A stretch of 64,000 nucleotides of DNA. Origin: Candidatus Woesearchaeota archaeon (GTDB lineage Archaea; Nanobdellota; Nanobdellia; SCGC-AAA011-G17; PNOQ01). Every line of letters starts with the position of its first letter. Position 1 is the first letter of the stretch. Below, one piece after another: positions 1-62,025 of the stretch. A program made the translations under genes and the position numbers. Location of the stretch: assembly GCA_018663865.1 (NCBI GenBank), contig JABJPM010000030.1, forward strand, positions 117-64,116, in the 5' to 3' direction. A model generated the notes under the pieces. It was not told where the DNA came from and made no database searches. It saw only the letters and a program-made list of their open reading frames with translations.

Positions 1-1091
1 ATTGTCTTTATTCATCTGGTTCACCAATTTTGGGAAATTTTTGGTTGAGAGATAATCTGAATTTTCTTAGTTTAGAATCTTCGTTTCCGTTTGATATGTT
101 GTGGTATCAAGGCACTTGTACGATTCCTGAATGTAATGATAACTTAAAATCTTTAAAAAAATCTAAAAAATCTAAAAAAAGAAACGTGCTATGGGATTGT
201 ACTAATATTAATTTAAATTTTCACTTTGGTGATGAGTTGGAGATTATAGAATATTGCCTTTATAGCTCTGGTCCCCTTATTGGGTATTTTGATAATAATG
301 AATTTCCAGATCATAGTATGTTAATTATAGGAACTACTCCTGATGGAGATCTTATATTGAAGAATAGTTGGGGAGATGGATTTATTGAACATAATGAATT
401 TCCTGGATTAATTCAAGAGGGAAGTTTTATCCCAGAAAATGATTATGATGTTACTTGTTCTAATTTTGATGGAGATGATTTCTGTTTTTGGGGAATAAAA
501 GGGTTGAGATTTGAAGGTTCTAAACCCGCTAGTTGTAATGATCTTAGTTCTTATTGCGGAAGTTCCAAACTAGACTGTAATGATCTTGATGGATCTTCTG
601 ATGGGTGGGGTTGTCAATTTTCTTGTGGTAATGGTTATTGTGATCCTTGGGAAGATTGCCATTTTTGCTTTGAAGATTGTTGGATGCAAGGGGGAAAAGA
701 AAGAAGTTTTTGTTGTGGTGATAATATTTGTAGCGAGGAATATGGGGAAACATGTGATTTGTGTTCACAAGATTGTTGCCCTGGTTTAGAAAATGGGATT
801 TGTGATTTTGCTGAAAGATGTGAAGAGTCTAATGGAGATTGTATAGGTGGGGAGGGGGGTTGTGGTTTTAATCGTTTATGTGTCGAATATAATCCCAATA
901 ATGGGGCAGAACAAGAAACATGCGCTCAAATATGTGATTCTGAATCCAATGCTGCTTGGTATAGAATAGAATGTCCAAGGAACAATAATAATTTTCAATA
1001 TTTAGATATTACTGGATATAATGATTTTGGTCCATATCCTGGCGATATTCCACACGAAGAAGAATGGCGTTGTTGTGAAATTATATCTTAA
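1..1091 (+). CDS. Secreted papain-like (C1) cysteine peptidase C-terminal part plus Cys-rich C-terminal domain; 5' end is cut by the window edge (frame open to nt 3; the track's 'M' at 30 is an internal TTG)
   Basis: Motif 'LKNSWGDGF' resembles the C1 family 'NSWG..WG' block near the catalytic His/Asn. Downstream is very Cys/Asp/Gly-rich. Confidence 0.5.
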   Translation, partial: CLYSSGSPILGNFWLRDNLNFLSLESSFPFDMLWYQGTCTIPECNDNLKSLKKSKKSKKRNVLWDCTNINLNFHFGDELEIIEYCLYSSGPLIGYFDNNEFPDHSMLIIGTTPDGDLILKNSWGDGFIEHNEFPGLIQEGSFIPENDYDVTCSNFDGDDFCFWGIKGLRFEGSKPASCNDLSSYCGSSKLDCNDLDGSSDGWGCQFSCGNGYCDPWEDCHFCFEDCWMQGGKERSFCCGDNICSEEYGETCDLCSQDCCPGLENGICDFAERCEESNGDCIGGEGGCGFNRLCVEYNPNNGAEQETCAQICDSESNAAWYRIECPRNNNNFQYLDITGYNDFGPYPGDIPHEEEWRCCEIIS

Positions 1092-2865
1092 TTTCTATTT
1101 TTCTATTTGTATCTAACGCTTCTAAAATTGTTCTCCCAATTTGAGATTTTTTATGAATTTGAATTTTGCCCTTATTCGAAACTACTGCGGAAAATAAAAA
1201 ATTATCCTCTAATAATATTTCTGCTTGTTTTTTTATCAGTGATTTTGGAACTGTGAATGTTACAAATTTTTTAGATTCCGCTGCATGATAATTTATTATT
1301 TCTTTTTGTTCTTTTTGTTCTTTTATTGTAATTCTTATTCCCAATTTGTCTTCTATATTTGAAATTCTTTTCCCCTTTACTCCTATTAATTTGGGAATTT
1401 CTTTTTCTGGAACATAAATTGTTGCCCTATTGTTTTTTATTTCAACTTTGGCACTTCTTGAATATTGTTTGAATTCTTTATCTAAATATTGTTCTGCAAA
1501 TTTTATTGTTGATGATTTCTCTTCTGAAACTGGGATGACTACCGTGTTTTCCCCATAACTATAAATTTCATAAGATAATCTATTTTCTAAAAAATCATAA
1601 ATCTCTATTACTGGCCTTGCTAAATCGGATTCTGTCATTCCACTTGGGACCTTTACTGTAATCTTTAAAGTTAATACTGATTCTATTTTTCCAGATTCCA
1701 TGAAGATTATTGTATCTATCACGGAAGGGATCATTCCTGTTTCTATCCTCGGAATAAACCTTTGTATTGAGTCAATTGCAGATGCTGAGTGAATTACTCC
1801 TAAACAATTTGAACCGCCTAATCTCAGATCTGTAAATAGTTTGAAGTCGGGAGTATCCCTTATTTCGTCAAAAAGAATATTGTCTGGTCTTGATAAAAAT
1901 AATATGTCATGTATTTCTCCAGATGCAGCAAAGTTCTTAGAATATTGAGTTATATTTTTGGATAATTGTAAGTCCCTCGGAGATTCAACAGTTTTTGTAA
2001 TTTTCCCTTGCTCCGCATAAAATTCCGCGATTGCTTGTGCAAATGTTGATTTTCCAGAACCAACTTCTCCAGCTATTAAAATTCCTCGTGCTTGAGTTTT
2101 TATTCTATCCAAAATACTTTCTTCTATTTCATAATCACTTAATGTTAATTTTTTGATTGGTTTTACGGCAGTTATTTCTAATCCATTTGAAACCGGGGGC
2201 CTAACAATTACAATCCTATAATTTCTGTATTGAACTACTGTTGATCCTGGTCTAGAGATTTCTACAAATGATCCTGGATCCATTTTGGCTTTTTCTACAA
2301 TTTCTTTTGATAATTCCATTAATGTTTCTCTTTTTAATGGTTTTTTTGCAAGTTTTGTTAATTCCCAATTTCCTGGTAATCCTTTTTTTGCTACAGGAAT
2401 TGCATCTTCTTTTAAATGAACTGACATTGTTCTATCATCAAAATATTTTTCTAAAGATAATTTTGTTTTTGGTTTTTGATGTTCTATGAACTCAACTTCT
2501 AATCCATAAACTCTTGCTGATTCTGCTTGTACAATATCGGCTGTGATTAATATCGCGGAATGATCATATGCAATTTGCCTGATTAATGCATCTATTTCTC
2601 CAGATTTTGCAAATCTGATTTGATCTACTGTTGGCCTGTTCCCCATAAATTGCAAATCAATTTTGTTTTGTTTTTTTAATTCTTGAAGTTCTTTCAATTC
2701 TTCTAAACCTAGAAATCCTGTCTCTCTTCTTTTATTTGCCTGCGACTCTATTTCTGCAACAACTGCATTTGGAATAATTATTGTACCATTAATTTTCTTT
2801 TCTTTTATTAGATTAGAAACAATTTTTTCGATAATTACTGAAGTATCTGGAACATAAGTTTTCAT
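1081..2865 (-). CDS. PIN-domain / KH-domain ATPase (archaeal COG1855-type, PilT-like NTPase)
   Basis: N-terminal PIN-like acidic residues; Walker A 'GEVGSGKST'; C-terminal KH-like 'IGVKGKRISNIE'. Confidence 0.7.
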   Translation of the reverse strand: MKTYVPDTSVIIEKIVSNLIKEKKINGTIIIPNAVVAEIESQANKRRETGFLGLEELKELQELKKQNKIDLQFMGNRPTVDQIRFAKSGEIDALIRQIAYDHSAILITADIVQAESARVYGLEVEFIEHQKPKTKLSLEKYFDDRTMSVHLKEDAIPVAKKGLPGNWELTKLAKKPLKRETLMELSKEIVEKAKMDPGSFVEISRPGSTVVQYRNYRIVIVRPPVSNGLEITAVKPIKKLTLSDYEIEESILDRIKTQARGILIAGEVGSGKSTFAQAIAEFYAEQGKITKTVESPRDLQLSKNITQYSKNFAASGEIHDILFLSRPDNILFDEIRDTPDFKLFTDLRLGGSNCLGVIHSASAIDSIQRFIPRIETGMIPSVIDTIIFMESGKIESVLTLKITVKVPSGMTESDLARPVIEIYDFLENRLSYEIYSYGENTVVIPVSEEKSSTIKFAEQYLDKEFKQYSRSAKVEIKNNRATIYVPEKEIPKLIGVKGKRISNIEDKLGIRITIKEQKEQKEIINYHAAESKKFVTFTVPKSLIKKQAEILLEDNFLFSAVVSNKGKIQIHKKSQIGRTILEALDTNRKIEIKI

Positions 2866-11842: not shown

Positions 11843-11990
11843 TTTGAAAAATAAAAGTGGACAGCTTTTTGAGGTTCCCGTATAAAATACAGTACAACTC
11901 AAAACGTGGGCCTGCTTGACTTCCGAGATCGAGACGAGTTCGGGTATAACCAGGTCGCTTTGACCGTCCTAAAATTTGGGTAGATTTAGT
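11843..11990. ncRNA. Candidate structured small RNA (unassigned)
   Basis: GC-rich island (gggcctgcttgacttccgagatcgagacgagttcgggtataaccaggtcgctttgaccgtcc) in an AT-rich intergenic gap; no ORF. Confidence 0.3.
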
Positions 11991-14856: not shown

Positions 14857-15140
14857 AGGGTAGGCTAGACTGGGCGGTTAGCTCTCGCTTGTTATCGCAA
14901 ATGAGCTATATGGTGAAGTCGAATGCCTGATTGAGGCTTTAATCTTTATTATTGGTCTCAACTTGGACGTTGATCCTTTGTCTCATGGGATCGTTGTTTT
15001 TGGGAATCAAGTCAGATCCGGAAGGAAGCAGCTTTTACCTTAAATATCGATGCTTGTGAATCGCAGAGAGGAGGAAAAGTTGAGGTCAACCCAATAATAT
15101 CGTTTATTGTCGATTTCAGGATGCCTGCATTTTAGTTACA
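14857..15140 (+). ncRNA. ffs: Signal recognition particle RNA (7S/SRP RNA); ends approximate
   Basis: Contains 'UCAGAUCCGGAAGGAAGCAGC', matching the universally conserved SRP RNA helix-8 motif. It lies in a roughly 290-nt GC-rich ORF-free island. Confidence 0.75.
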
Positions 15141-59169: not shown

Positions 59170-59769
59170 TTAATAGTCCCCTAAATTTTTTTGAGCTTCT
59201 GCCTTCGCAATTCGCTTATATGTTGCCCAAGTTTGCCTGAATAATTCTGGATGTTTTTTCCAATTCGCCTTTAGAAATGCTTGAGTAATTGGGTTTGCCG
59301 GATAACCTGGCCCTGTTTCGCCGTAGATTTTCCTTAATTTATCAATTTCTGCATCTCTTGTAACTTTTGCTAAGATAGACGCCGCACCAGGTTCTATGTA
59401 GTTTAAATCTGCTTTGTGTTCAGTCACGAATTTCACATTTTTATCTTCAACTCTTTCTTTTACAAATTCCTCATATGATTGAATATTTGTTGAAGGGCAA
59501 TCTAATATTGCTTTTTCTGGTTTTAACTCGTTAATTATTTGTGCAGTTGCGACCCCTTCTAATTTATTTAAGTTTGAATCTGGAGAATTTAATGCATTAT
59601 CAATCTCCTGAGGAGATAAAATTATAATTTTGTATGAAGTGACTATTTTTTTAATAACTTCAAACATATCTTCTCTTTTTGCAGGAGGAATTAATTTTGA
59701 GTCTTTAACGCCCATATTTCTTAATTGTTCTGCTTGTTCTGGAGTTACCACTACACCAGCCATAACCAT
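59170..59769 (-). CDS. rnhB: RNase HII, C-terminal roughly 90% (lacks the N-terminal catalytic GIDEAG block in this frame)
   Basis: 'MVMAGVVV...DSKLI...' continues a canonical RNase HII. The upstream in-frame sequence reads ...TAGGPVLGPMVMAGVVV immediately after a TGA. Confidence 0.8.
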   Translation of the reverse strand: MVMAGVVVTPEQAEQLRNMGVKDSKLIPPAKREDMFEVIKKIVTSYKIIILSPQEIDNALNSPDSNLNKLEGVATAQIINELKPEKAILDCPSTNIQSYEEFVKERVEDKNVKFVTEHKADLNYIEPGAASILAKVTRDAEIDKLRKIYGETGPGYPANPITQAFLKANWKKHPELFRQTWATYKRIAKAEAQKNLGDY

Positions 59770-59813
59770 TGGACCAAGGACAGGACCCCCTGCGGTGAGA
59801 AAAACTAGTTGCT

Positions 59814-60848
59814 TTACTCATTTCCGGCTTCGTCGATGCCACAAGTCAATGATTTTCCTTTTTCAGTTTTATTCCATTCCGTATCCATTTGTTTTACCAA
59901 TTCCTCTTTTTTTAACAATCTTAGTTTTTTTCTGATTGTTTTTCTTGGAATGTTTGTATCTCTCGATAAATCGCATATCTTTTTAAATTTATCTAGGGAA
60001 GTTAAAATTACTTTTTTATCATTTAATAAGATTTCTGTTATTATTTTTTTCTTGGCCCAAACGGTTTTATTTTTTATTTTCATATAACTTATCTTTTTTT
60101 CTGTTTTTAATTCTCTTAAAACATCTAATATTCTTGCTGGAGATCTATTAAATTTTTTAGATAATTCGAGTGTTCTAGTTGGTTTTATTAAAGTTTTTTC
60201 TATATTTTTTTTAAGAAATCCTTTTGAGTAGTGTGGTTCTTTTAAACTATTGATCATTCTTGCAAATTTAAATTGTTTTTCTGGATGTAATTCGGCAATG
60301 TTTAATTTATTTGTTTTTTCTAGTTGACAACCATATATCCAATAGTTTCTGTCTTGTGATTCGAATGTATGTTCTATATTAAAATGATTCAGAATATTTT
60401 CTAATATTATATATCTTTTTGATTGAGATATTCTTATACTTCTTGAATTATTATTTTTTGGATTGTGTTTAATATTGCCTTCCCCTGCAAAAAACCCTCT
60501 CAATATTCTCGAATAATTTATTTTTTCTTTTAATGTTTTGTTTACTATACTTTTCCATTCCTTTACGAAATTCACATCTGCTAGTCTATAAATATAATAT
60601 GTCTTTTTTGCTCTAATGTCTTGATAATATCTTATTTTTATATTTCCTATTTTATTGAAAAGTTTTCTTTTTGATGGGGAATATACATAAATTCTTGGTT
60701 TATTGTCTCCGGTATATATCGAATTAATTGTTTCATGAAAAAATAATATTAATTCTATGCAGTTATTTGTAAATGTTATTTCAGAAATTGTTTTATTGTC
60801 TCCTTCTGCTAACCATAATCCAACGCATTCTGATATTTGTTTATTCAT
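59814..60848 (-). CDS. LAGLIDADG homing-endonuclease-like ORF with HTH-like C-terminal region, ending in the RNase HII N-terminal catalytic motif (...SLTCGIDEAGNE*)
   Basis: Two LAGLIDADG-type motifs ('CVGLWLAEGD' at residues 8-17, 'GFFAGEGN' about 108 aa later); K-rich wHTH-like segment; last 8 residues GIDEAG = RNase HII motif I. Confidence 0.6.
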   Translation of the reverse strand: MNKQISECVGLWLAEGDNKTISEITFTNNCIELILFFHETINSIYTGDNKPRIYVYSPSKRKLFNKIGNIKIRYYQDIRAKKTYYIYRLADVNFVKEWKSIVNKTLKEKINYSRILRGFFAGEGNIKHNPKNNNSRSIRISQSKRYIILENILNHFNIEHTFESQDRNYWIYGCQLEKTNKLNIAELHPEKQFKFARMINSLKEPHYSKGFLKKNIEKTLIKPTRTLELSKKFNRSPARILDVLRELKTEKKISYMKIKNKTVWAKKKIITEILLNDKKVILTSLDKFKKICDLSRDTNIPRKTIRKKLRLLKKEELVKQMDTEWNKTEKGKSLTCGIDEAGNE

Positions 60849-60945
60849 ACTTAAAAAAGTATTTTTTTATTTATAAATTTCATGTTGGTGTTTGGCAAGC
60901 ATTTTGGAAATAAATGTGAAAAAATATTAAAAAATTTAAATGAAT

Positions 60946-61019
60946 AGCGGGAGAAGGATTTGAACCTCCGACCTCCGGGTTATGAGCCCGACGAGCACTC
61001 CTAACTGCTCCATCCCGCT
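60946..61019 (-). tRNA. tRNA-Met (CAT), probably initiator (A1:U72, three G:C pairs in anticodon stem)
   Basis: Reverse complement AGCGGGATGGAGCAGTTAGGAGTGCTCGTCGGGCTCATAACCCGGAGGTCGGAGGTTCAAATCCTTCTCCCGCTA. Confidence 0.8.
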
Positions 61020-61065
61020 ATTATAATAAAGAGAAAATTTAATTAGTTTTTAAAGGTTATGTTTT

Positions 61066-62025
61066 TTAAAATAAATTGAATAATTTTCCTATGAATAATA
61101 TATAAAGAATTACTAACATCCACCCTTCCCATTGTGTAACTTCTCTATCTTGAGTTGTGAAATAATATGTTAATGTTGCTATGATCATTACTGGTAAAGC
61201 AAATGTTAACATTGAAGCAGGAATTATTAATTTTCCGAATAATGCTGGAATTCCCATTACTGCTAATGTATTGAAAATATTAGATCCTAAAACATTACCT
61301 ATTGCCATTTCTGGATTTCCTTTTTTAGCTGCAGTTATAGAAACAAATAATTCAGGTAATGATGTTCCTAGCGCTATTGCACTTACTGCAATTATTTCTG
61401 TTGCGATATTAAGTATTTCGGAGATTTGGATTACAGAATCGATAGTATATTTTGCTCCGAAAAATATAAAGATTGTACTTAATATTAAAGTCCACCAAAC
61501 TTTTTTGTCTAGTTTTTGTTTTTTAATTTTTTTTCTCTTTTTTATTTCTTTTTTTATTTCTTTATCTTTTTTTGAAGTTGAAATTGTATATTTCATATAT
61601 ACAAATAATAGTGCTAGTGAAAGTATTGCTTCAAAAGTTGAAAAATGTTGGTCCCATATTGCTATTGTGAATAGCATTGTCGCACCAAATAATATTGGTA
61701 AATCAACGTGAACTAACCCATAATGAACTTTAAGTTTTTTCCCCATTATTGCTGCTACACCAAGTACTAAGAATATGTTTGCAATATTTGATCCAATTAC
61801 ATTACCAACTACAATTTCTGATGAATTTTGCATTACTGCAAAAAGAGAAGATATTAACTCCGGCAGTGATGTACCGATTGCAACTATTGTAACTCCTACA
61901 ATAAATGCGGGCATTTTTAAGTGCAATCCAATTTTTTCTGCTGAATCTGTAAAATAATCTGAAGCTTTGATTAGTGTGTACAATCCTGCTATGAAAATTA
62001 TTATCCAGATTGTTATGTTTAACAT
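61066..62025 (-). CDS. Ca2+/Na+ antiporter (CaCA family)
   Basis: Duplicated alpha-repeat 'GTSLPELISSLFA' / 'GTSLPELFVSITAA'. Confidence 0.85.
   Translation of the reverse strand: MLNITIWIIIFIAGLYTLIKASDYFTDSAEKIGLHLKMPAFIVGVTIVAIGTSLPELISSLFAVMQNSSEIVVGNVIGSNIANIFLVLGVAAIMGKKLKVHYGLVHVDLPILFGATMLFTIAIWDQHFSTFEAILSLALLFVYMKYTISTSKKDKEIKKEIKKRKKIKKQKLDKKVWWTLILSTIFIFFGAKYTIDSVIQISEILNIATEIIAVSAIALGTSLPELFVSITAAKKGNPEMAIGNVLGSNIFNTLAVMGIPALFGKLIIPASMLTFALPVMIIATLTYYFTTQDREVTQWEGWMLVILYILFIGKLFNLF

Follow-up and report, generated by a model that had tools for sequence, protein, structure and literature searches.

The bulge-helix-bulge (BHB) motif is the substrate recognised by the archaeal tRNA-splicing endonuclease, and I-DmoI is the endonuclease of a BHB intron in the 23S rRNA of Desulfurococcus mobilis. 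Protein-coding genes of archaea are considered to contain introns only in extremely rare cases. In 2020 the only BHB intron on record in the coding region of an mRNA was that of cbf5 (PMC7714728), a pre-mRNA intron of Crenarchaeota (Watanabe et al. 2002; Yokobori et al. 2009, PMC2738675), and a further BHB intron has been described in the 5' untranslated region of the HVO_1309 mRNA of Haloferax volcanii (Schwarz et al. 2020, PMC7714728). Collaborative homing is exemplified by cyanophage psbA, where, as PMC6083498 describes the work of Zeng, Bonocora & Shub (2009), the free-standing endonuclease F-CphI is encoded beside a group I intron that lacks an open reading frame (ORF). Here we analyse a stretch of 64,000 nucleotides (nt) from a Candidatus Woesearchaeota genome (contig JABJPM010000030.1, hereafter the window), on the minus strand of which the RNase HII gene rnhB is split behind its catalytic motif I by a short spacer and preceded by a gene for a LAGLIDADG protein. 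Comparison with related loci makes it very likely that the spacer is a 32-nt BHB mRNA intron excised by the tRNA-splicing endonuclease. We further propose, with a probability of roughly 0.45, that the active-site codons of rnhB in DPANN archaea and Nitrososphaerota are the homing target of a mobile element in two parts, an ORF-less BHB mini-intron and a free-standing gene for a LAGLIDADG homing endonuclease.

The rnhB intron resembles that of cbf5 in being a short BHB-type intron in the coding region of an archaeal protein gene, in its predicted use of the tRNA-splicing machinery and in its gain and loss between lineages. It differs in its host gene and range (rnhB, in DPANN phyla and Nitrososphaerota), in its location in a catalytic motif, in its length of 21-52 nt, in the adjacent LAGLIDADG gene and in that splicing is here predicted from sequence. 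Like the HVO_1309 mRNA, the rnhB transcript would extend the substrates of the archaeal splicing endonuclease beyond tRNA and rRNA to an mRNA, whereas the HVO_1309 intron lies in an untranslated leader, interrupts no reading frame and has no associated endonuclease gene. With the endonuclease-encoding introns of archaeal rRNA the locus shares the combination of a BHB intron and a monomeric double-motif LAGLIDADG enzyme, and I-DmoI is among the best structural matches of the upstream protein. In those introns, however, the ORF lies inside the intron and the host is an rRNA gene, whereas here it lies outside, upstream of an exon 1 of about 11 codons, the intron is devoid of an ORF, the host is a protein-coding gene and two additional winged-helix domains are attached to the endonuclease-like protein. 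The psbA system, as described in PMC6083498, is alike in that a free-standing endonuclease gene adjoins a target gene with an ORF-less intron at a conserved site, and in that gene and intron co-occur; it differs in belonging to a phage and in combining a self-splicing group I intron with an Endo VII-type enzyme, as opposed to a protein-spliced BHB intron and a LAGLIDADG enzyme on an archaeal chromosome. The components, BHB splicing, LAGLIDADG endonucleases and collaborative homing, are known. New, as far as can be told, are the host gene, how widely the arrangement is distributed, the association of a free-standing LAGLIDADG gene with a BHB intron devoid of an ORF, and the fact that this gene reads in frame into exon 1. 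The searchable literature contained no report of an rnhB intron or of an association between LAGLIDADG proteins and RNase HII, and rnhB would be the second coding-region BHB case, represented in about 66 genomes.

A first-pass annotation of the window had described an ORF of 344 amino acids (aa) with two LAGLIDADG motifs and a helix-turn-helix (HTH) region, ending on the RNase HII motif GIDEAG followed by NE and a stop. All of this is seen in the sequence: the ORF runs on the minus strand from 60848 to 59814, carries CVGLWLAEGD at residues 8-17 and GFFAGEGN at residues 118-125, and ends in ...SLTCGIDEAGNE at a TAA stop (59816-59814). The spacer could be read as annotated, too, with TAA and TAG stops in the upstream frame, a TGA stop in the downstream frame and the palindrome AACTAGTT inside it; its exact sequence has a single occurrence within the window. 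The body of RNase HII (GGPVLGPMVMAG...) resumes 3' of the spacer in a frame other than that of the 344-aa ORF, and the first start codon of this downstream ORF is that of MVMAGVVV at 59769. In its unspliced form the downstream ORF matches the Pfam family RNase_HII with 104 bits, beginning at profile position 15. Upstream of the spacer lies a remnant of rnhB exon 1 (59822..59849, minus strand; ...LTCGIDEAG plus the first base of an Arg codon), which contains the catalytic Asp and Glu of motif I and in which homology with the sister allele MVLTLGIDEAG resumes. The remnant shares the frame of the upstream ORF and lacks a start codon; for rnhB, the closest ATG in this frame is that of Met321 (59888-59886). 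Exon 2 (59170..59789, minus strand; GG of the Arg codon, then GPVLGPMV...GDY and the stop) is an intact ORF of 205 codons with all RNase HII motifs present.

The predicted intron (AUGAGUAAAGCAACUAGUUUUUCUCACCGCAG) occupies 59790..59821 on the minus strand, where it is placed by BHB geometry, by an alignment gap against an uninterrupted allele and by ten identical assemblies. Its central helix H would be formed by CCGG (59824..59827), consisting of bases of the Ala (GCC) and Gly (GGA) codons of exon 1, and by CCGC (59792..59795) inside the intron. These strands adjoin a 5' bulge AAA (59821..59823), with the 5' splice site between 59822 and 59821, and a 3' bulge AGG (59789..59791), with the 3' splice site between 59790 and 59789, so that the layout of exon 1, intron and exon 2 is ...GAAG-CCGG-AA / A-UGAG...CUCA-CCGC-AG / G-GGGUCC.... 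The intron-internal stem-loop h' (59796..59820; UGAG-U-AAAGC, loop AACUA, GUUUU-U-CUCA) is found in minimum free energy (MFE) folds and by covariation over 60 loci, and the palindrome AACTAGTT lies at its tip. On unspliced RNA, the upstream ORF terminates at a UAA within the intron.

Joining the exon sequences GACGAAGCCGGAA and GGGGTCCTGTCC is predicted to give GCC GGA A+GG GGU CCU (A-G-R-G-P), which rebuilds an AGG Arg codon; the predicted product reads GAAGCCGGAAGGGGTCCTG across the junction, with the junction peptide GIDEAGRGPVLGP. The spliced RNase HII matches the Pfam family with 142 bits from profile position 1, a gain of 38 bits, and passes the NCBIfam equivalog TIGR00729 (188.9 bits, cutoff 123.3). 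The first-pass annotation had noted that deleting either 29 or 32 nt restores a normal junction between motifs I and II. The arithmetic is right, but the boundaries of its 32-nt deletion are not: the predicted cut lies one base further 3' (59821..59790), and because of this shift the conserved Arg is restored, giving GIDEAG-R-GPVLGP and not GIDEAG-G-GPVLGP.

With the predicted spliced protein as query, we recovered uninterrupted RNase HII proteins of 217 aa that are 93, 84 and 81% identical to it (loci L174, L176 and L178). The gene order at these loci is the same as in the window, with a Na/Ca exchanger gene, tRNA-Met, rnhB and an ORF of about 91 aa, and none of these three closest relatives has the endonuclease gene, a remnant of it or the intron. 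In the alignment of L174 with the window, tRNA-Met is identical at 77/77 positions and two segments are found in the window only. One is exactly 59821..59790, the predicted intron, and the other is the inserted endonuclease cassette (59870..60939, minus strand), which begins 5 nt after tRNA-Met. L174 reads GAA GCA GGA A/GA GGC CCA, where the slash marks the position of the intron, and translates to MVLTLGIDEAGRGPVLGPMVMAGVVV, matching the predicted spliced reading (uninterrupted junction GGTATCGATGAAGCAGGAAGAGGCCCAGTC). The native start of rnhB, MVLTL in L174, is replaced in the window by KSLTC, the in-frame tail of the upstream ORF, and as a result the window gene is left without a nearby start of its own. 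The N-terminal fusion of an endonuclease to rnhB that had been pointed out in the first-pass annotation is therefore present as in-frame read-through in the clade of the window but is not a general feature of RNase HII; judged from this alignment, the upstream ORF is a separate, optional gene cassette between tRNA-Met and rnhB. The empty-site alleles share CTTATAAACAAACTTAATTCTAA 5' of the rnhB ATG. L178 has a different ORF of 209 aa (482-1111, minus strand) with a faint LAGLIDADG_3 match, located about 2 kb upstream of rnhB beside a topoisomerase I / integrase-like gene; its tblastn similarity to the window endonuclease is insignificant (E=0.7).

That the spacer is an assembly or sequencing error is a general possibility for any metagenome-assembled genome (MAG), and nothing more specific speaks for it. 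A 111-nt segment across the junction is identical base for base in 10 contigs obtained independently from different samples and with different assemblers (MEGAHIT, SPAdes, JGI), some of them from strains that diverge by 1.6-3.7% from the window over the locus, and a homologous interruption occurs in about 66 other genomes. An artefact is on these grounds almost certainly not the explanation.

The wider locus set was obtained by scanning one genome per species with the upstream protein, which gave 89 matches among 185,579 species genomes and returned 80 loci. These derive from Woese-, Pace-, Aenigm-, Micr-, Nanohalo-, Iain- and Altiarchaeota, from Nitrososphaerota and from some MAGs labelled Thermoplasmata or Methanosarcinales. 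The rnhB gene lay directly downstream on the same strand in all 78 loci with enough downstream DNA. At 61 loci it was interrupted between DEAG and GP by 25-46 nt, with stops in the insert and the two halves in any relative frame, and six more interrupted loci outside this motif search also had BHBs. In total, 66 endonuclease-bearing loci had the intron (21-52 nt overall, downstream ORFs intact) and 12 were uninterrupted. The comparison of rnhB loci that had been suggested at the outset thus recovered both an intron in the same codon in about 66 loci and uninterrupted syntenic alleles at L174, L176 and L178.

The inserts have a common architecture in which the last four bases of exon 1 before a 3-nt bulge pair with four bases of the intron, followed by a second 3-nt bulge; the bulges are on opposite strands and the intron-internal stem lies between them. 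In 60 of the 61 loci, DEAG-(R/K)-G can be restored by a splice that falls on a BHB (scores of 8/8 in 49 and 7/8 in 11, the window being among the 11), whereas a median of about 0.3% of position pairs per locus score as high in the background of the scan. The central helix has 4/4 pairs in 49 of the 60 loci and 3/4 in the other 11. In a splice-anchored alignment of the 60 loci, 86.8% of the cells were paired compared to 58.6% in shuffles, and the covariation score was 0.729 compared to 0.201; none of 500 shuffles reached this score, and sliding the partners gave at most 0.204. Two variable pairs of the central helix track the wobble bases of the Ala and Gly codons, and all six counted pairs of the h' helix change on both sides. 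Seven loci with a shifted register (six at -1 and one further 3', the window included) were placed out of structural register by MAFFT, so the covariation counts are conservative for these rows.

Since the splice-anchored selection presupposed the cutting rule and was circular in this respect, the cut-position test was redone blind on a subset chosen by structure only. A unique best BHB was found in 35 loci and the frame was restored in 30 of them. Cutting after the second nucleotide of the bulge gave Arg in 30/30 cases, while cutting after the first gave five Ile and cutting after the third gave six Ser. An archaeal BHB-type mRNA intron, one of the four options listed in the first-pass annotation, is strongly supported by these comparisons, namely the BHBs in 60/61 loci, the covariation, the blind test and the L174 gap. 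As far as alignments can carry such a claim, the covariation is strong enough to define the rnhB intron without experiments.

The position of the intron varies slightly. It lies 1 nt further 5' than in the majority in the window and in L003-L005, L011, L078, L171 and L172, and 3 nt further 3' (AGA G/GC, helix GCAG/CUGC) in the Micrarchaeota loci L038, L043, L071, L076 and L080 and in L027. The three neighbouring registers of one intron could reflect either intron sliding or independent insertions.

Several observations weigh against an intron in the window itself. The central helix CCGG/CCGC pairs at only 3/4 positions, with an outer C·C mismatch, and is among the weakest BHBs of the family. 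A structure-only search of the window copy prefers an internal hairpin, and the resulting splice gives a stop codon. Folding of the junction, which the first-pass annotation had proposed as a check, revealed no BHB in MFE structures, the stability of which equalled that of shuffled sequences (z ~0). When the protein collection was queried with the predicted spliced protein, no sequence of this strain that runs seamlessly across the junction was recovered. Throughout the family, finally, the outer exon-exon helix h of the hBHBh' form is represented by one conserved closing C-G pair (56/60), the remainder being unpaired and without covariation. The motif is therefore of the relaxed H-B-h' kind, and cleavage would need an endonuclease that tolerates relaxed motifs.

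Single-sequence folding of this junction is, on these results, uninformative, and the BHB is clear only from comparison. Because the structure-only pick gives a stop, the splice assignment in the window rests on register homology and on the empty-site alignment. The register of the window is shared with L003, L005, L011, L171 and L172, which have perfect covarying helices (CUGG/CCAG, GCGG/CCGU, CAGG/CCUG, CGGG/CUCG), and L004 and L078 have the same 3/4 helix as the window. Taken alone the window copy is unconvincing; in the company of its register relatives, the gain in TIGR00729 and Pfam scores and the uninterrupted sister allele, it is convincing as a predicted intron.

The mismatch in the helix, the non-productive outcome of the structure-only search and the loss of the rnhB start codon would all fit a decayed intron with a 3-bp central helix that is no longer spliced, so that rnhB would be a young pseudogene and only the endonuclease-like ORF expressed. 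This is unlikely, given that exon 2 retains 205 intact codons and all motifs, that its strain alleles differ at 58/620 nt with a pN/pS of about 0.19 and no stops, that the junction is invariant in the 10 assemblies and that the genes of L004 and L078 are intact despite the same 3/4 helix. Nearly all archaea have RNase HII, and the 64-kb window shows no other copy of rnhB. Recent pseudogenisation as put forward in the first-pass annotation is also at odds with the fact that about 66 loci, spread over many phyla, are interrupted at the same codon and keep their downstream ORFs intact.

Programmed bypassing, as in T4 gene 60 and the mitochondrial byp elements, involves matching take-off and landing codons that flank the gap. 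The upstream frame of the window ends on a GGA codon with a stop two codons later and there is a small hairpin in the gap, features that would suit a ribosome hopping over the spacer or shifting frame by -1. There is, however, no GGA landing codon, and landing on GGG would give GIDEAG-GPV, which is one residue short and lacks the conserved Arg; no codon pair restores the motif. For a -1 shift the downstream frame is closed by TGA up to a point shortly 5' of the upstream TAA, and a shift would be possible only right at GAG-UAA, placing about 12 foreign residues in the active-site loop. The spacers of the relatives, at 21-52 nt and in all three relative frames, have the BHB as their sole common feature and always form it. 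Translational recoding, which the first-pass annotation had also entertained, is for these reasons very improbable. An intein was rejected because the endonuclease lies upstream of GIDEAG without an N-extein and the spacer contains stops, and the size of 21-52 nt rules out a group I or group II intron.

In the splicing pathway that we propose, CCGG of exon 1 would pair with CCGC of the intron to form the central helix, with the 3-nt bulges at its ends on opposite strands and the intron hairpin closing the structure. The splicing endonuclease EndA would cut after the second nucleotide of each bulge, and an RtcB-type ligase would join ...GCC GGA A to GG GGU CCU..., creating AGG (Arg) and an intact RNase HII. 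The unspliced reading of the locus is 344 aa long and ends at the intron UAA, the spliced reading is a 548-aa fusion, and the spliced reading from Met321 is an RNase HII of 228 aa. In the clade of the window, unspliced RNA would accordingly encode the endonuclease-like protein and spliced RNA the fusion or the 228-aa enzyme. If so, splicing of one transcript would choose between the endonuclease alone and an endonuclease-RNase HII fusion.

The upstream ORF (59814..60848, minus strand, unspliced reading) matches, at 100% identity, a protein annotated in a Candidatus Woesearchaeota MAG. The profile searches that had been recommended identified Pfam LAGLIDADG_3 (E=1e-5, 26.1 bits, cutoff 22.5) and HTH_5 (E=9e-5), together with a weak WhiA match. 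A double-motif LAGLIDADG nuclease domain covers residues 1-185 (60294..60848, minus strand), with motif 1 at 60798-60827 (E15) and motif 2 at 60474-60503 (E123), and two winged HTH units cover residues ~205-335 (59844..60236, minus strand), as indicated by Pfam HTH_5, HTH_45 and TrmB, by the structural model and by matches to SelB WH2-4 and ArsR-type proteins. The family comprises 356 detectable homologues over DPANN lineages, nearly all of 330-370 aa; many end in G(I/V)DE(A/S)G followed by a few residues and a stop, and the RNase HII Pfam domain was found in none. No curated NCBIfam model covers this family, a PDB profile search matched no solved LAGLIDADG enzyme by sequence, and viral contigs contained no relatives.

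AlphaFold2, run on the family alignment, yielded a model with a mean pLDDT of 91.7 that consists of two alpha-beta-beta-alpha-beta-beta-alpha repeats followed by two winged-helix units, with E15 and E123 at the C-terminal ends of helices 3-15 and 109-123. The best PDB matches in Foldseek were the bI3 maturase (top), E-DreI and I-DmoI, with E values of 2e-5 to 1e-3 and a target-normalised TM score of about 0.6. The C-terminal half matched the tandem winged helices of SelB, and WhiA was matched as well. WhiA is a bacterial transcription factor with a LAGLIDADG scaffold and an HTH module that has lost the catalytic acidic residues. It is alike in the succession of a LAGLIDADG fold and an HTH module and differs in being a core gene, whereas the upstream family is optional and retains both glutamates in at least 97% of 120 homologues; the Glu-containing motifs themselves are kept in 118/120 (motif 1) and 116/120 (motif 2). 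The conserved glutamates fit an active nuclease and not a WhiA-like scaffold, and the family would enlarge the supply of LAGLIDADG enzymes by a new group that also carries a tandem winged-helix module for DNA binding.

In every locus the endonuclease ORF has its end at or within exon 1; no stop separates it from exon 1 in the window, in L001-L003 and in about one third of the 120 closest homologues. A Nanoarchaeota MAG (L037, 3001-4668) has an uninterrupted in-frame ORF of 555 codons that combines an endonuclease-like part with an intron-less RNase HII and has an internal Met just 5' of ILGIDEAGKGP, so an uninterrupted fusion frame does occur naturally. Some endonuclease ORFs start with a truncated copy of rnhB exon 1 (MTTILGIDE...), in which case the duplicated exon 1 flanks the endonuclease gene. 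Such duplications were seen in L003 (1927-1953 and 2965-2991, 22/27 nt identical), L012 (2956 and 4014), P0037-P0039, P0045 and P0102, and the upstream copy stops 7 nt short of the splice site. The duplication could mark a point of breakage and rejoining during integration. Its interpretation as the trace of an ancestral intron with an internal ORF was rejected, as it occurs in only 2/63 loci and the upstream copy lacks the helix-forming bases and is not a second BHB.

To what extent gene and intron travel together was estimated from an independent sample of 51 rnhB loci with at least 1,100 nt of upstream DNA, drawn by a motif in the C-terminal half of RNase HII. The endonuclease gene was present in 3 of these loci, all with the intron; no locus had the gene without the intron, two had the intron without the gene and 46 had neither (Fisher p=5e-4). 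The endonuclease ORF was disrupted in 13 of the 66 intron-bearing loci, in at least 8 of them by a frameshift, with rnhB intact. Divergence of the endonuclease was loosely coupled to that of RNase HII (r=0.50), with large discordances in both directions. Among strains of the window species (L161-L170), a block of about 2 kb (61530..59516; locus coordinates 519-2533) was 100% identical. It comprises the 3' half of the exchanger gene, tRNA-Met, the endonuclease gene, exon 1, the intron and the first 275 nt of exon 2, and on either side it continues into alternative flanks, which are 5-9% divergent and occur in every left-right combination. In L161, L162 and L168, the 92-aa ORF downstream of rnhB is replaced by a very different 94-aa ORF and adenylosuccinate synthase.

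Patchiness, decay, discordance and mosaic structure of this kind are the traces expected of a homing element. We put the odds that endonuclease gene and intron form a selfish cassette, moving as a single unit, at about even. In the mechanism that we envisage, cleavage by the endonuclease would be directed at rnhB alleles without the unit, and repair of the break would transfer the endonuclease gene together with the short exon 1 and the intron; because the host would splice the intron, its presence in conserved coding sequence would be harmless. This would be the first case of collaborative homing in archaea and would explain for the first time, in concrete terms, how an ORF-less BHB intron moves; the pairing, the empty sites in sister lineages and the strain mosaic make the mechanism directly testable.

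Other observations argue against mobility. The strain mosaic follows in part from the selection of contigs by an identical endonuclease protein. Eleven loci have an intact endonuclease gene beside an uninterrupted rnhB, which does not fit a strict immunity model of collaborative homing, the steps of cleavage and protection being themselves inferred here. The insertion-site codon is AGR in 4/12 intron-less loci with the endonuclease gene and in 22/45 alleles without it (p=0.52). Conversely, three loci (L116, L140 and L148) have a well-formed BHB intron and no endonuclease gene; they show a short intergenic region beside an unrelated upstream gene, L116 offering only 674 nt of upstream DNA. Lastly, the endonuclease family is strongly conserved in length and sequence, as a host function would also predict. 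Given the intron-less loci with the gene, the negative codon test, the selected mosaic and the lack of viral relatives, homing is something we infer from its expected traces.

The same observations could be accommodated if the intron is real and the upstream protein is a domesticated host factor, which could bind DNA or RNA as a partner or regulator of RNase HII or could assist the intron in the manner of a maturase. Conservation of length and sequence over about 350 homologues would be in keeping with such a role, as would the invariable location next to rnhB on the same strand, often with overlap or fusion, the top fold match to a maturase (bI3) and the likeness of the C-terminal half to the RNA-binding winged helices of SelB, the 11 intact copies beside uninterrupted genes and the negative outcome of the immunity codon test. 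A host factor would, however, not be expected to be as rare and patchy as this family (3/51 rnhB loci; 89 matches in the species-level scan), to be missing from the three closest relatives at an otherwise syntenic site, or to be frameshifted or truncated in at least 13 loci where rnhB stays intact. Both catalytic glutamates are near-invariant, unlike in domesticated LAGLIDADG proteins of the WhiA type, and divergence is discordant with that of rnhB. If the rnhB genes of L116, L140 and L148 are functional, their introns are spliced without the endonuclease, and the gene would not be needed for splicing. We therefore regard domestication as somewhat unlikely, though as the most serious competitor of the homing element.

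Public gene calls, such as the gene tables of L161-L170, give rnhB as 59170-59769, a protein of 199 aa that starts at MVMAG and lacks the catalytic Asp and Glu; the upstream ORF is labelled a hypothetical protein or transcriptional regulator. Both genes are expected to be mis-annotated in this way in about 66 other genomes. Since gene callers truncate rnhB to 199 aa and mis-extend the upstream ORF, inferences of a defective rnhB in small archaea would be wrong.

The tRNA-Met gene (CAT anticodon) is located at 60944-61020, 95 nt upstream of the endonuclease ORF. A TATA-like sequence TTTATAAATA (60868-60877) lies about 24 nt 5' of the endonuclease ATG, a spacing that suggests a leaderless transcript. 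In a scan of the entire window for further BHBs that would join ORFs, the AT-rich DNA proved too noisy and only the rnhB intron was found again. The window contains six tRNA genes, with no intron reported in any, and genes for the archaeal signal recognition particle RNA and 5S rRNA at 14858-15130 and 11856-11971, respectively.

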